DNA of 32,000 nt from Promethearchaeota archaeon (GCA_016933055.1 JAFGBS010000004.1:300001-332000), one strand, 5' to 3'; counted from the first letter of the stretch, positions 27,251-32,000 are shown. The notes: generated by a model from the letters alone, not told the origin. Program-made: numbers and translations.

Positions 27251-27538
27251 ATGGGAAAACTCGGTACATGGAAAGTACAACCAATAAATAATGAAATCGT
27301 AACAATATTGGTGCGACACAAAGGAGAAATGCTGGACTCAGAACTCTTAAGAACATTGCAAAGTAAATATGTGGATATCACCCGCAATACATTGTACAAA
27401 TGTTTATTCACTCTCGAAGTCTCAAATATCATCGAAGTCATCCGATTGCGTCAAAATAAATACAAAATTTCGTTACGTAAAGACGCACCTATTGATGAAA
27501 GTTTTATAGATACTTTAAAAAACTACACTAAATCATAA
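27251..27538 (+). CDS. Small winged helix-turn-helix protein
   Basis: ELLRTLQ...RNTLYKCLFTLEVSNIIEV...YKISL gives a recognition helix plus wing pattern. TTTATA lies ~25 nt upstream of the ATG. Confidence 0.65.
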   Translation: MGKLGTWKVQPINNEIVTILVRHKGEMLDSELLRTLQSKYVDITRNTLYKCLFTLEVSNIIEVIRLRQNKYKISLRKDAPIDESFIDTLKNYTKS

Positions 27539-29137
27539 TTTGGTATAGCGTGAACACACGTCTTCCAAGGTTTCTATATCGGTTGTATTTTTGCATATTC
27601 GATTGCGAATGTTCACAAAAATCGGAAAATTGGTAGCATTGCCTAGTAATAAGGCATTTCCTGTTGGTAAATTTGAGATCATCCGCATGGATTCTCGTGT
27701 TAATGCCTCAGAGGTTGCTTTTATATGATCCAAATCATTAGGATTGGTTACACGGAGTATTATATGAGTATTGCATTGAGAAAGTACGGTATTACTAAGT
27801 TTAACGGGACGTTGAGATATTAAGCAGAGTTGTCCGAAGAATTTTCGTCCTTCACGAGCGATAGTTTCAATTATCGATTTTGATATTGATGAATTATTTA
27901 TGGAGTGTTCAGGAGCAAATTGATGTGCTTCCTCTAAAATAATGAAAAACGGTGGTACCTCCTCTTTTCTTCGCATGTAAAATAGCCGATCTAATAAAAA
28001 TGACACGATAATTTGTTTTTTTCGTATCGATATTAAGGAAGAAAGATCTATAATGTTTAATCTACCGGGTTCAATTAAGGTTCGCAACACGGGATGATTT
28101 TTTTTAGCAAAAATTTTGTTTCGATTTAAATCACTTAACCATCCCGATAAAGCACTCCGAACTTTTTGGTTGATACTTTGATCTTTTTCTATACGGGTGA
28201 TAATCTCTGAAATATCGTATTGGTCATTATTTTCTTCGTATTTAAGCCGATTTAACACGCTTTTAAGTTCCCGTATTTGAGCATTAGATATATTAGGTTG
28301 AAATTTTGCAAAATCATACGCTGTGAGGGAGGATACAGCGATTTGAAAATATCGTGCATCATGTCGGGTGGTAAATTTTGTAAATTCTTGATTTTCTAAA
28401 GTGTTATGATCTGTAAAGAACTTATATTCCCCATGTACATCAAATAGAATAATTCCTGGAGTACCCTGATTAGTATTGGATCTTTTTAATAATTCTTCCA
28501 ATACCACCGATACTAGATAACTCTTCCCCGCTCCAGACATGGCTAAAATTGCTACATGTTTATTGATTAAACGGGACAAATTGAGTTTTACAGGCGTATT
28601 ATAATGGGATAGTGATCCGATGTATAATCCATGTGGGTCTATTCCCAGTAAAATGTCTAATAGTTCCCCTTGAACTACACTAACTTTACTGCCGGGTTTC
28701 GCAGGGAAATAACTTCTTTTCAAGACTGACTGAAATTTCAAAGGCGCATCGGTTAGCGTTGCGGTGGATTTAGCTATTTTGGGAAATACGCCTAGTACTT
28801 TTACGTATGCTAAATAATCCTCCCATTTTTCACTGGGAAAATAGGAACAAATATTTGACAAATATCCTTTATCAAAATTCTTAACCGTTTGAGGATTGGA
28901 GTAATATTCATTATTTACAATTATATCTTCAATTTTTCCGATGAGCATACCTTCCTCAGATAAAGTTGAACAAAACATACCTTGTCTTATTAGAGAATTT
29001 TGAACATTAGGATCTACAATAAAAAGGTAATGATCTGTATTGGGCGAATTTTCCGCTGGAGATGTATAAATAGTGCCAATATTTTCTCCTGTATAGATAT
29101 CATTGAATCCTTTTTGCATAGATTTCGTGCTGTCCAT
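27533..29137 (-). CDS. herA: HerA-family ATPase/helicase (HAS barrel plus FtsK/HerA domain)
   Basis: KHVAILAMSGAGKS, FDVHGEY, ILEEAHQFAP, IAREGRKF, ISQRP..L...VLSQCNT, LPTGNA. ATG 29137 preferred over TTG 29155. Confidence 0.85.
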   Translation of the reverse strand: MDSTKSMQKGFNDIYTGENIGTIYTSPAENSPNTDHYLFIVDPNVQNSLIRQGMFCSTLSEEGMLIGKIEDIIVNNEYYSNPQTVKNFDKGYLSNICSYFPSEKWEDYLAYVKVLGVFPKIAKSTATLTDAPLKFQSVLKRSYFPAKPGSKVSVVQGELLDILLGIDPHGLYIGSLSHYNTPVKLNLSRLINKHVAILAMSGAGKSYLVSVVLEELLKRSNTNQGTPGIILFDVHGEYKFFTDHNTLENQEFTKFTTRHDARYFQIAVSSLTAYDFAKFQPNISNAQIRELKSVLNRLKYEENNDQYDISEIITRIEKDQSINQKVRSALSGWLSDLNRNKIFAKKNHPVLRTLIEPGRLNIIDLSSLISIRKKQIIVSFLLDRLFYMRRKEEVPPFFIILEEAHQFAPEHSINNSSISKSIIETIAREGRKFFGQLCLISQRPVKLSNTVLSQCNTHIILRVTNPNDLDHIKATSEALTRESMRMISNLPTGNALLLGNATNFPIFVNIRNRICKNTTDIETLEDVCSRYTKL

Positions 29138-29257
29138 TAACACCACAATACTCAAAAATTTACAAGACTCGCTACAATAAATCGAAAATCTCGTTATTTT
29201 TAATTTGAGTCATCCACTTTATAAGAAAATAGAGTGTGAGGGATTTTTAATATCCCA

Positions 29258-29776
29258 TCACGTTCGTCGTATAATAATTTGAACAATTTTTTTGTCGCGA
29301 AGTGAATCAATTTTTTCTTCAAGATTCTTTAATGGGATTCCAGTAATCTCAGAAATTGTTTCAATTGTATGATCTCCATCACATAATTGGAGGATTTTAT
29401 ATTCCTCTTGCGTAACCATACCCAATTGTACGGACATTGGCTGAATTTCTTTTTCACATACTGGAATGCGGGTTCCCTCATTTAAATCTTCTTTAGCAAG
29501 AGCTGAATCCCCGTGATAGGATTCTACTTGCTTTACTTCGTAATCTTGATTAATAAAAACCGCTGTAGTATGCTCAATATTCGAGAAATCTTGGGGATTA
29601 TTGATATCGGGATTCATGTTTAAATGACGATGTTTATAAATGTACAACCCTCCGAGTTTTAATCCGTTACGGATCTCTTCTTTATCTATATCAATCCCTA
29701 TCACTTCTTTACATATGTCACAATTCACATAAGCGCGGATAGTTTTAAAGTAATTTATCGTGCGGTTAAAAGACAT
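29258..29776 (-). CDS. Hypothetical protein: Cys/His putative metal site plus C-terminal wHTH
   Basis: CDIC...KHRH...EHTTAVFIN, then EEYKILQLCDGDHTIETISEITGIPLKNLEEKIDSLRDKKIV. Confidence 0.7.
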   Translation of the reverse strand: MSFNRTINYFKTIRAYVNCDICKEVIGIDIDKEEIRNGLKLGGLYIYKHRHLNMNPDINNPQDFSNIEHTTAVFINQDYEVKQVESYHGDSALAKEDLNEGTRIPVCEKEIQPMSVQLGMVTQEEYKILQLCDGDHTIETISEITGIPLKNLEEKIDSLRDKKIVQIIIRRT

Positions 29777-30034: not shown

Positions 30035-30208
30035 ATGTCTTACGCTCAAGAAGTATGCAATGGATGTGGAAAACAGCTCGCTCCATATGAAAACGCGGTA
30101 TCTTTTCCTTGTCCCAATTGCGGAGATATCATGATTTATCGATGCGAACGCTGTCGAGCATTTGCTCGTCCTTATAAGTGTCCCAAATGCACTTTTGAGG
30201 CTCCATAA
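30035..30208 (+). CDS. Archaeal Zn-ribbon protein (DUF1610/PRK14890-like, 57 aa)
   Basis: Not in the ORF track; hand translation: MSYAQEVCNGCGKQLAPYENAVSFPCPNCGDIMIYRCERCRAFARPYKCPKCTFEAP. This family typically precedes EF-1beta in archaea. Confidence 0.9.
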   Translation: MSYAQEVCNGCGKQLAPYENAVSFPCPNCGDIMIYRCERCRAFARPYKCPKCTFEAP

Positions 30209-30233
30209 ACACTCCCAACCGAGGAACATAAAC

Positions 30234-30749
30234 ATGACAACTAACTTAACTTTTGCACGTAGCCCTGTTAGAGAAATGATGAAGCGAAACGGTGCTCAAC
30301 TAGTTGCACAAGATGCAGTAACATTGTTGATCGACCATATTGAACAAGCTGCTAAACAACTAACAAAACAAGCACTTGTATACGCCCAGCATGCAAAGCG
30401 AAAAAAAATTACACGGGATGATATTCTCTTAGCTACAAAATATACAATAATTAAACACAAAATGAAAAAAGAACACTATGTGATAGCGGTAGTAAAAGTT
30501 CTTCCTGATGATGTGTATGAGAATGCTCACTTGGAGAAATTAGTTGGAGAGCTCAAAAATGTGCTAACACCGTTAAATACTGTTGTCGAAAAGTTTACCA
30601 TAGTCCCCATTGCATTTGGGTTGCAAGCTCTTCGTGTTCAAATACGAATTCCAGAAGAAACTGAGGGTGGAACTCAACCTGCGGAAGATGCTATGGAATC
30701 CTTAGGATGGGTTCAGCGAGTAGAAGTGGAAATGGTCACACGTTTATAA
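30234..30749 (+). CDS. Archaeal histone fused in frame to elongation factor 1-beta (171 aa)
   Basis: ATG 30234 follows GAGGA. Residues 1-70 form a histone fold (FARSPVREMMKRNGA...AQHAKRKKITRDDILLA). After a TIIKHK linker, Met at 30462 begins EF-1beta (VKVLPDD...PIAFGLQAL...EGGTQPAE...VQRVEVEMVTRL). No in-frame stop lies between them. Confidence 0.85.
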   Translation: MTTNLTFARSPVREMMKRNGAQLVAQDAVTLLIDHIEQAAKQLTKQALVYAQHAKRKKITRDDILLATKYTIIKHKMKKEHYVIAVVKVLPDDVYENAHLEKLVGELKNVLTPLNTVVEKFTIVPIAFGLQALRVQIRIPEETEGGTQPAEDAMESLGWVQRVEVEMVTRL

Positions 30750-30762
30750 TTTCCTGTATTTT

Positions 30763-32000
30763 TTACCTATGAAACTCTTTCTCGAGATATGACCAACTGA
30801 AAAATAACATGGTAGGTCGACCATGAGCGCAATGATGGGGATTTTCGCACAGTGATAAGGTTATGAGTAATTTTTTTGCAAATTCCGGATCTGAAATCAT
30901 ATCTCCTCCTCTAATGCTCTCATGACACGCAATATATTTAAGGATCTTCTCAACCGATTGACTAAAAGATGTTTGTTTTCCCATTTCAATAATTTCTAAG
31001 CAAATGTCTGTAAGAATAGCTGTATCTTGTACTTCTTTCAAGATGGTAGGAATTGTATGTAAAGTAAAGGTGGTACCTCCTAGATGGTTCACTTCAAATC
31101 CAAACTTTGCAACCTCAGAAATCGTATCGAGCAAGTATTCTTTCATATTTATCGGAACTTCAATAGTAAAGGGAATTATTAAACGCTGTCTATGCATTCC
31201 TCCTTTTAAATACGCCTTCATCTCTTTTTCATAATTGATCCTTTCATCTGCTGCGTGCATATCTAAGATATAAAATCCTTCCTCCCCTTCAAAGACAAAA
31301 TATACATTCTTTAATTGTCCTGATTCGCTTATTAACCGCATCTTCGGAAAAGATTTTGTTTGTATCCATTCATTGCGTAGAAAATAATGGGATTGTTTGG
31401 AAATAAGATTTGGAGCAAAGGTTTGCAACGGAAGAGCTTTAGTTTTATGAGGAGTAGCTATCTGAGCTTCAGAGGACACCCTCTCTTGGGATTGTGACGT
31501 AAATTTAGAACTTGATTGAACTAATGGGCTTTGAGCAGATGTAGATAGATTATTCTTTAGATGATTTTCCGATGGAGATTTTTCTTCAATCCATGTTTCA
31601 ATTGTTTTACTGGAGGAAGAAATAGATTGGTCTAGTTGACTGGTAATTGTAGACTGTCCAAATTTTTGATTGACCACTGAGCGCGTTACCTCGCTTAATG
31701 CACTTAATATCGTTTCTTCTTCTTCGAATCTGACAATTTTCTTGGTGGGATGAATATTGAAATCTACCTTGGAGGGATCTATGGTCAAAAATAGGACATA
31801 AAATGGATGTTTATGGATCATTATATAGCTTTTATAAGCAAATTTCATCGCTTCATGGACGGTGGGAGAAATAACGTACCGGCCATTGATAAACACCGTA
31901 GTATTATGAGATGTGGATTGTGCTAAGGTGGGATCCCCAATATACCCTTCGATGGTGAATAAATTGTGCGATTCTCTAAAAAATACGCTATTTTTTGCGA
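30763..32000 (-). CDS. mutL: DNA mismatch repair protein MutL (5' part outside window)
   Basis: Frame is open to the window edge (…FTIEGYIGDP…VFINGRYV); VDFNIHPTKKIVRF, QRLIIP, DMHAADERINYE, ACH, CAHGRPT. Confidence 0.95.
   Translation of the reverse strand, partial: AKNSVFFRESHNLFTIEGYIGDPTLAQSTSHNTTVFINGRYVISPTVHEAMKFAYKSYIMIHKHPFYVLFLTIDPSKVDFNIHPTKKIVRFEEEETILSALSEVTRSVVNQKFGQSTITSQLDQSISSSSKTIETWIEEKSPSENHLKNNLSTSAQSPLVQSSSKFTSQSQERVSSEAQIATPHKTKALPLQTFAPNLISKQSHYFLRNEWIQTKSFPKMRLISESGQLKNVYFVFEGEEGFYILDMHAADERINYEKEMKAYLKGGMHRQRLIIPFTIEVPINMKEYLLDTISEVAKFGFEVNHLGGTTFTLHTIPTILKEVQDTAILTDICLEIIEMGKQTSFSQSVEKILKYIACHESIRGGDMISDPEFAKKLLITLSLCENPHHCAHGRPTMLFFSWSYLEKEFHR

Follow-up and report, generated by a model that had tools for sequence, protein, structure and literature searches.

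A histone joined in frame to the translation elongation factor aEF-1beta in one small lineage of Asgard archaea

Introduction

Can a histone and a translation elongation factor share one polypeptide chain and, if so, how did such a protein arise and what might it do? Histones and aEF-1beta, the exchange factor of aEF-1alpha, are among the best-known small archaeal proteins, and their joining is unexpected. To our knowledge, all described archaeal aEF-1beta proteins are free-standing and about 90-100 aa long, as are all the others found here. Histones, on the other side, are known to acquire partners: the survey by Schwab et al. (2024, PMC11390915), with 17 groups including the ZZ-domain histones, covers prokaryotic histones fused to other domains.

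The question is raised by an open reading frame near the end of a 32,000-nt stretch of a Promethearchaeota genome (GCA_016933055.1 JAFGBS010000004.1:300001-332000), hereafter the window, in which a histone fold runs directly into aEF-1beta. Here, we analysed the two halves of its predicted product, the junction between them, and the relatives and genomic surroundings of the fused gene, and weighed what the joined protein may be doing.

Results

The fused gene and its neighbourhood

The locus comprises the following features (window coordinates, strand, description and basis):

30035..30208, plus strand: aS21, a 57-aa Zn-ribbon protein of the HVO_2753 family (Pfam PF07754, Ribosomal_aS21, E 9e-20)
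30221..30225, plus strand: Shine-Dalgarno-like GAGGA, 8 nt 5' of the fusion ATG
30234..30749, plus strand: fused gene histone::aEF-1beta, 171 aa, 19.4 kDa, pI 9.1
30234..30443, plus strand: histone-fold domain, aa 1-70 (Pfam, NCBIfam and PDB matches)
30444..30476, plus strand: connector TIIKHKMKKEH, aa 71-81 (coil over 71-81 in the AF2 model)
30462..30464, plus strand: internal ATG, Met77 (alignment with stand-alone relatives)
30477..30746, plus strand: aEF-1beta guanine-nucleotide-exchange domain, aa 82-171 (Pfam, NCBIfam, PDB and Foldseek)
30763..32000, minus strand: MutL, the C-terminal part of which lies inside the window, convergent (Pfam MutL_C and DNA_mis_repair)

Translation of 30234-30749 yields a single 171-codon ORF on the plus strand, stop-free until 30747-30749, and Pfam and NCBIfam matches place a histone fold and aEF-1beta within it, bearing out the original prediction on this point. 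The sequence likewise reads as had been claimed around the two potential starts, with GAGGA upstream of the histone ATG and no such site upstream of the EF-1beta ATG at 30462.

The aS21 gene ends 25 nt before the fused ORF begins. Its product scores 74.1 bits against NCBIfam PRK14890 (cut-off 61) and matches chains of archaeal 30S/70S structures (6sw9_C, 6skf_Az and 6tmf_W; E ~1e-19), and aS21 is present in the 30S subunit of M. acetivorans (PMC12605026). This protein is a conserved operon partner of aEF-1beta, and synteny identifies MutL as a neighbour kept at fused and unfused loci. Being so short, the aS21 gene can be missed by gene callers, and it is uncalled in several related loci (e.g. 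L023 and L025). Diverging from the aS21 operon is the gene for a 172-aa protein (29258-29776, minus strand) with a weak winged-helix match only (HTH_47, E 5e-4, below the cut-off), a neighbour kept in all fused loci. Farther away, the gene for a HerA/DUF87-type ATPase (27533-29155, minus strand; E 2e-33) is kept beside a CDC48-like AAA gene in the related loci.

Both halves are ordinary members of their families

The histone half matches Pfam CBFD_NFYB_HMF (PF00808) over aa 10-67 (E 2e-10; 41.1 bits, cut-off 21.4), passes the NCBIfam archaea_histone model NF043032 narrowly (50.3 vs a cut-off of 50) and aligns with HPhA (1ku5), HMfA (1b67) and HMfB (1a7w) by PDB sequence matching, the fold spanning aa ~6-70. 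Across the fused clade, R13, G20, H53, K55, R56, K57, K58, R61, D63 and K69 are invariant, and G20, H53, K55-K58, R56 and D63 align with HMfA and HPhA. Following HMfB numbering, we take R56-D63 to be the RD clamp, H53 to belong to the tetramer (four-helix-bundle) interface and G20 to be the small residue of the stacking position, so that the fusion resembles the nucleosomal histones HMfA/HMfB and HPhA in having one ~65-aa fold with these three features. Residues 1-76 of the window fusion carry a net charge of +8, and the histone part across the fused clade retains +8 to +12 with a pI of 10.1-10.9, equal to or above the values of free histones. Two differences from other archaeal histones stand out. 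A folded acidic domain of 95 aa follows helix alpha3, which neither those histones nor the paralogues in the same genome possess, and every fused copy has Arg or Lys where most of the free histones compared have the Trp of the N-terminal FAWSP motif.

Those paralogues are four free histone genes, identified by histone matches in the same genome (G000):

C6:124103-124297, minus strand: free histone gene
C17:262003-262185, plus strand: free histone gene
C28:77081-77263, minus strand: free histone gene
C16:209413-209589, plus strand: free histone gene

All four share with the fusion the basic L2 motif KRKK-T, which reads KRKKIT in the window. Over its matched span, the C28 histone is not basic (net charge -1, pI 6.1), an unusual property in a histone that wraps DNA. 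Another oddity encountered among the histone matches, unrelated to the fusion, is P0018, a 374-aa protein whose four matched stretches correspond to four histone-fold repeats in one chain.

The EF-1beta half matches Pfam EF1_GNE (PF00736) over aa 85-171 (E 1.5e-13; 51.1 bits, cut-off 20.8) and passes the NCBIfam elongation factor 1-beta model NF001670 narrowly (67.9 vs a cut-off of 67), while its score against TIGR00489 (51.1) is below the cut-off of 61.2. PDB sequence matching aligns it over its full length with aEF-1beta of M. thermautotrophicus (1gh8; E 3e-8). Modelling of the fusion by AF2 gave a confident EF-1beta fold (pLDDT ~85) and an unusable inter-domain geometry (monomer pTM 0.48), the exchange domain appearing as a beta-alpha-beta-beta-alpha-beta arrangement (E82-91, H97-114, E117-125, E131-140, H148-155 and E160-170). 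Foldseek superposes it with a TM score (target) of 0.85 on P. horikoshii aEF-1beta (2yy3_A), on 7csl_C, the EF1B chain of an archaeal EF1A-EF1B complex, and on yeast eEF1B-alpha (1f60_B). The PIAFGL and GGTQP motifs and the C-terminal R170 are invariant or nearly so in the fused clade: P125, A127, G129, L130 and R170 do not vary, and position 128 is F or Y. In the alignment with 1gh8, the closing R170-L171 falls opposite the R-L terminus of that protein; R170 may be the equivalent of Lys205 in yeast eEF1B-alpha, the EF-1alpha-contacting basic residue next to the C-terminus, and the aromatic residue of the PIAFGL loop may likewise be a conserved EF-1alpha contact. The domain has a net charge of -5.

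With its 90-residue C-terminal fold, its motifs, the TM score of 0.85, an aS21 gene directly upstream and a single copy in the genome, the fusion is like other archaeal aEF-1beta (PF00736/NF001670; 1GH8, 2YY3 and 7CSL), differing in the 80-residue N-terminal histone module carried by its sole copy. Indeed, the genome of the window, 91% complete, has one EF1_GNE match, which is the fusion. As the exchange domain looks intact and is the only one in the genome, it presumably must still recycle aEF-1alpha-GDP.

The fusion recurs in independent assemblies

Nine further protein clusters from JGI, ENA, NCBI and Logan assemblies have the same fused architecture and are 63-77% identical, which with the window protein makes ten fused clusters in all. 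For the comparison at the DNA level, seven fused genes were used, namely that of the window and those of six fetched loci (among them L022, L023, L025 and L030). The gene order aS21 > histone::EF-1beta > MutL (minus strand) is found at all seven, on contigs that include ones of 355 kb, 128 kb and 123 kb, and the nucleotide sequences of the junctions differ. None of the six close loci has separate histone and EF-1beta genes. GAGG(A/T) lies 7-10 nt upstream of the histone ATG in 6 of the 7 loci. Over codons 1-171, the seven genes show no indel at all despite saturated synonymous sites (mean pS 0.71), with a pN of 0.15 for the histone, 0.30 for the linker and 0.22 for EF-1beta, the histone part thus having the lowest non-synonymous divergence of the three regions. 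These comparisons indicate purifying selection on two intact domains. Among the proteins, P0010 is the sole length variant, and its 6-residue deletion is in frame. Another apparent variant, P0012, in which the histone and linker are followed by a repetitive tail, comes from a 601-nt contig and was treated as the product of a poor contig.

The obvious objection to such an architecture is that two separate genes were brought together falsely, by a sequencing or assembly error where the DNA is AT-rich or through a chimeric contig. The junction has features that invite it: as pointed out at the outset, TAA stops are present out of frame at 30448-30450 and 30452-30454, and an A8 homopolymer (30401-30408, plus strand), a spot of likely read errors, falls within the histone L2 codons (CGA AAA AAA ATT). 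Nevertheless, the same in-frame fusion occurs in independent assemblies with different junction nucleotides, and among short proteins there is no unfused close relative of the fused histone, none of them sharing enough words with the histone half. A frame that stays open although synonymous sites are saturated, the independence of the assemblies and the in-frame nature of the P0010 variant together argue that the fusion is not an assembly artefact, an explanation that we consider extremely improbable. The A8 run itself is broken in orthologues by G or synonymous changes (A5-A7) and is therefore not a conserved slippery site.

The predicted in-frame histone::aEF-1beta fusion is thus corroborated by nine further fused clusters and by the shared gene order, and, judging from these sequences, it is very probably a genuine fused gene that is translated as one protein. 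The accompanying caveat, that an indel or a lost stop might separate the two genes, does not apply to the assembly, as the orthologues are fused in frame; it proved apt in another sense, in that a stop was lost in the course of evolution.

In one of the fused relatives (L022:4560-6428, minus strand, on the 355-kb ENA/NCBI contig), gene calling splits MutL into three ORFs, of 144, 213 and 228 aa, in place of the single gene of ~625-645 aa seen elsewhere; this may reflect a broken mismatch-repair gene or sequencing errors in the assembly.

Distribution and origin of the fusion

The fusion belongs to one small lineage of Asgard (Lokiarchaeia-type) archaea. Among the genomes of the phylum, the fused form is found in 1 of 400, the one to which the window belongs, and no other genome has it among the 161 of the class or the 400 of the phylum. 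An exhaustive HMMER pass over 1.84 billion protein representatives returned exactly one fused cluster; the longer representatives with EF1_GNE or histone matches (P0026, P0036, P0064, P0102, P0103, P0126, P0144, P0147 and P0165) were inspected as further candidates, and none combines both domains. A search of genome contigs with the fused protein and the fused alignment, from which the genome of the window itself was possibly absent, yielded no loci.

In the same family, 12 of 13 other GTDB species genomes have EF-1beta, always right behind aS21 and without a histone, and several of these unfused loci also have the convergent MutL downstream; the aS21 > EF-1beta pairing is also seen at L042. 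The same-genus genome G001 (76% complete) was considered as a counter-case and set aside as uninformative, because it is without both aS21 and EF-1beta and the locus is unassembled. The nearest stand-alone EF-1beta proteins are 55-63% identical, and aS21 immediately precedes their genes except where the contig is too short to show the neighbour; no intermediate with a histone adjoining yet separate from EF-1beta was found at the nearest stand-alone loci. Divergence of the neighbouring genes follows the same division, with identities among fused loci of 59-75% for MutL and 82-88% for aS21, vs 31-42% and 57-72%, respectively, between fused and unfused loci of the family.

In phylogenetic trees, the fused histone parts form one clade (support 98/95), which groups, without a resolved branching order, with C6:124103-124297, a stand-alone histone of this genome, and the orthologues of that histone, and the fused EF-1beta parts form one group (support 87/85). 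The grouping of the fused sequences in both domain trees points to a single origin, and the family genomes in which EF-1beta follows aS21 without a histone suggest a one-time insertion and fusion of a histone copy. The simplest history that these sequences support therefore has one event, at the root of one genus-level lineage, in which its main histone gene would have been copied into the space between aS21 and aEF-1beta. Subsequent loss of the stop codon of this copy would have turned the old EF-1beta start, Met77, into an internal residue. The fusion is rare and lineage-restricted, yet stable and obligatory where present. Its confinement to one narrow lineage means that it may be nearly neutral.

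The junction and the fate of Met77

The segment TIIKHK at 30444-30461 and Met77 at 30462 lie exactly where they had been placed. The linker of six residues was thus correctly positioned, but the structural connector is longer: in the AF2 model, ~11 aa separate the end of helix alpha3 (Y70) from the start of the first strand at residue 82. Around the junction, K69, Y70, T71 and H75 are encoded by differing codons and yet invariant among the fused genes, T71 and H75 belonging to the connector itself, and connector length is constant in all fused orthologues except P0010, with its in-frame 6-aa deletion.

Stand-alone relatives of EF-1beta start with M-G-D-K-K..K-H-Y-V at the position matching Met77, where translation of the ancestral aEF-1beta thus probably began. 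Of the 7 fused genes read at the DNA level, however, 3 have another codon here (ATA in L023, TAT in L022 and L030), and I, Y or F takes the place of Met in 5 of 11 aligned proteins (P0005, P0008, P0009, P0011 and P0012). Counted by cluster, Met77 is kept in 6 of the 10 fused clusters and gone in 4, and the orthologues without it have no other start codon ahead of strand beta1. In those four clusters, its absence implies that EF-1beta is made only as part of the fusion. In the clusters that keep Met77, this genome included, some extra free EF-1beta may be produced by internal initiation.

These data bear on the alternative that the ORF gives rise to two products, with EF-1beta arising as a separate protein, whether by internal initiation from Met77, from a promoter within the gene or by proteolytic cleavage of the Lys-rich linker, and the fused polypeptide being a minor or transient species. 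Retention of the ancestral start in 6 of 10 clusters would fit, as would the linker, which is Lys-rich and predicted to be unstructured, and the AT-rich 25 nt ahead of Met77, in which the stretch 30437-30455, about 10-25 nt 5' of Met77, might be taken for a TATA-like element of archaeal type, although it shows no conservation in orthologues. On the other hand, the five proteins with I, Y or F (codons ATA or TAT) have no alternative start, no Shine-Dalgarno-like site precedes Met77, and linker length, T71, H75 and the frame have been kept through saturating divergence, which separate halves would not need. We therefore regard two products as an unlikely outcome.

Predicted pairing through the histone fold

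In the AF2 monomer model, the histone half has a pLDDT of 55-67 and its helices alpha1 and alpha2 are merged; such low values are expected of an unpaired histone fold. When two copies were modelled together, a homodimer was predicted with an ipSAE of 0.53 (best control, 0.01), three runs sharing at least 83% of contacts and the partner pLDDT being at least 81. Of solved structures, 20 of 30 homodimers and 1 of 23 single chains pass the same mark, although, with histone dimers well represented among such structures, passing it shows likeness and does not prove binding. The predicted interface involves residues 6-68 only and is a classical histone handshake, the dimer form shared with nucleosomal histones. 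The prediction modestly supports dimerisation of EF-1beta through the histone fold.

A possible interpretation is that the histone fold is nothing but a dimerisation handle, a protein-protein module in a single protein without any action on DNA, by which aEF-1beta is made dimeric or is docked to another histone-fold protein. Several observations agree with it. The predicted homodimer uses histone-fold residues alone, the Trp of FAWSP is replaced in every fused copy, and TAFs, NF-Y and CENP, whose kinship is apparent from the Pfam matches, use histone folds purely for dimerisation. Moreover, N-terminal oligomerisation modules occur in the eEF1B subunits of eukaryotes, and a dimeric state has been reported for Sulfolobus aEF-1beta. 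A pure handle, however, would not require the Lys and Arg residues of L2 and alpha1 that contact DNA, which are invariant in a clade with saturated synonymous sites, nor the retained net charge of +8 to +12, and the change of Trp to Arg or Lys adds charge rather than removing any. We consider this interpretation doubtful. With its DNA-contact residues invariant, the histone half, as a dimer, most likely still binds DNA.

Discussion

Our preferred reading is that the fused gene is translated as one 19-kDa protein that acts as a dimeric, nucleoid-associated exchange factor; combining sequence conservation with structure prediction, we hold this reading, taken as a whole, to be evenly poised between right and wrong. 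According to it, two copies of the fusion, or one copy and one of the four free histones, would pair by the histone-fold handshake, and each dimer would present one or two exchange domains, tethered by ~11 residues, while keeping DNA binding through its invariant Lys and Arg residues. In nucleosomal histones, the end of helix alpha3 emerges on the stacking face; with a 95-residue domain directly after this helix, long hypernucleosomes are probably not built, and the fusion would instead bind as dimers or tetramers or cap histone stacks. Archaeal translation starts on nascent transcripts, near chromatin, and an exchange factor associated with the nucleoid could concentrate aEF-1alpha recycling there. 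It is the conserved basic residues that suggest a tethering of the translation factor to chromatin, and any gain from putting an exchange factor on DNA is speculative. The more specific proposal that the sole aEF-1beta sits on DNA-bound histone dimers, capping or decorating stacks, with aEF-1alpha recycling tied to or regulated by the nucleoid, is accordingly put forward as a tentative possibility.

Each half of the protein is an ordinary family member, and it is their combination that represents a domain architecture that we have not found described. A full-text search of literature that takes in only a minority of subscription journals returned no described histone-EF-1beta fusion. Likewise, no elongation-factor partner came up in term searches of Schwab et al. 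(PMC11390915), a 2026 archaeal histone survey (PMC13260811) and a 2026 Asgard chromatin preprint. The fusion resembles the histones surveyed by Schwab et al. (2024) in combining a histone fold and a second functional domain in one chain, and differs from them in that its partner is an essential translation factor.

The closest functional parallel may be looked for in eukaryotes. The fusion shares with eEF1B-alpha and eEF1B-delta (1F60_B and 9A9S) the succession of an N-terminal interaction or oligomerisation module, a flexible linker and a C-terminal exchange domain, and its exchange domain superposes on the eukaryotic eEF1B domains with TM scores of 0.74-0.85. In eukaryotic eEF1B, the N-terminal position is taken by a GST-binding domain or by a leucine zipper rather than by a histone fold; these modules show no sign of common descent with it and constitute a parallel, not an ancestor.

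The fusion is the cell's only aEF-1alpha exchange factor, not an extra copy, and every round of elongation-factor recycling depends on a protein with an intact basic histone fold. Should DNA binding be retained, it would offer a simple natural system for spatial coupling of chromatin and translation in archaea, and would show how a bulky C-terminal domain affects histone polymerisation. Should it serve as a dimeriser only, a histone fold would have been recruited as an oligomerisation module of a translation factor, paralleling eukaryotic eEF1B. If the sole aEF-1beta is indeed bound to DNA, elongation, termination and ribosome rescue would all be linked in space to the nucleoid or come under its regulation, giving a natural example of direct chromatin-translation coupling, and the eEF1B-style pairing of an oligomerising module with an exchange domain would have been invented independently in the closest relatives of eukaryotes. 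The comparison of fused and unfused loci, for its part, documents a clean and datable route to fusion, in which a conserved two-gene operon received a gene copy that afterwards lost its stop codon.

A minor observation concerns the other end of the protein. In 6 of the 10 fused clusters (P0006-P0011, e.g. L025:4001-4543), Leu171 is changed to Pro and the chain continues into a conserved 9-residue C-terminal extension, MQPKDI[AS]QF, past the point where aEF-1beta normally stops at R-L. Since the basic residue next to the end of the exchange domain works at the EF-1alpha nucleotide site, this tail might modulate exchange.
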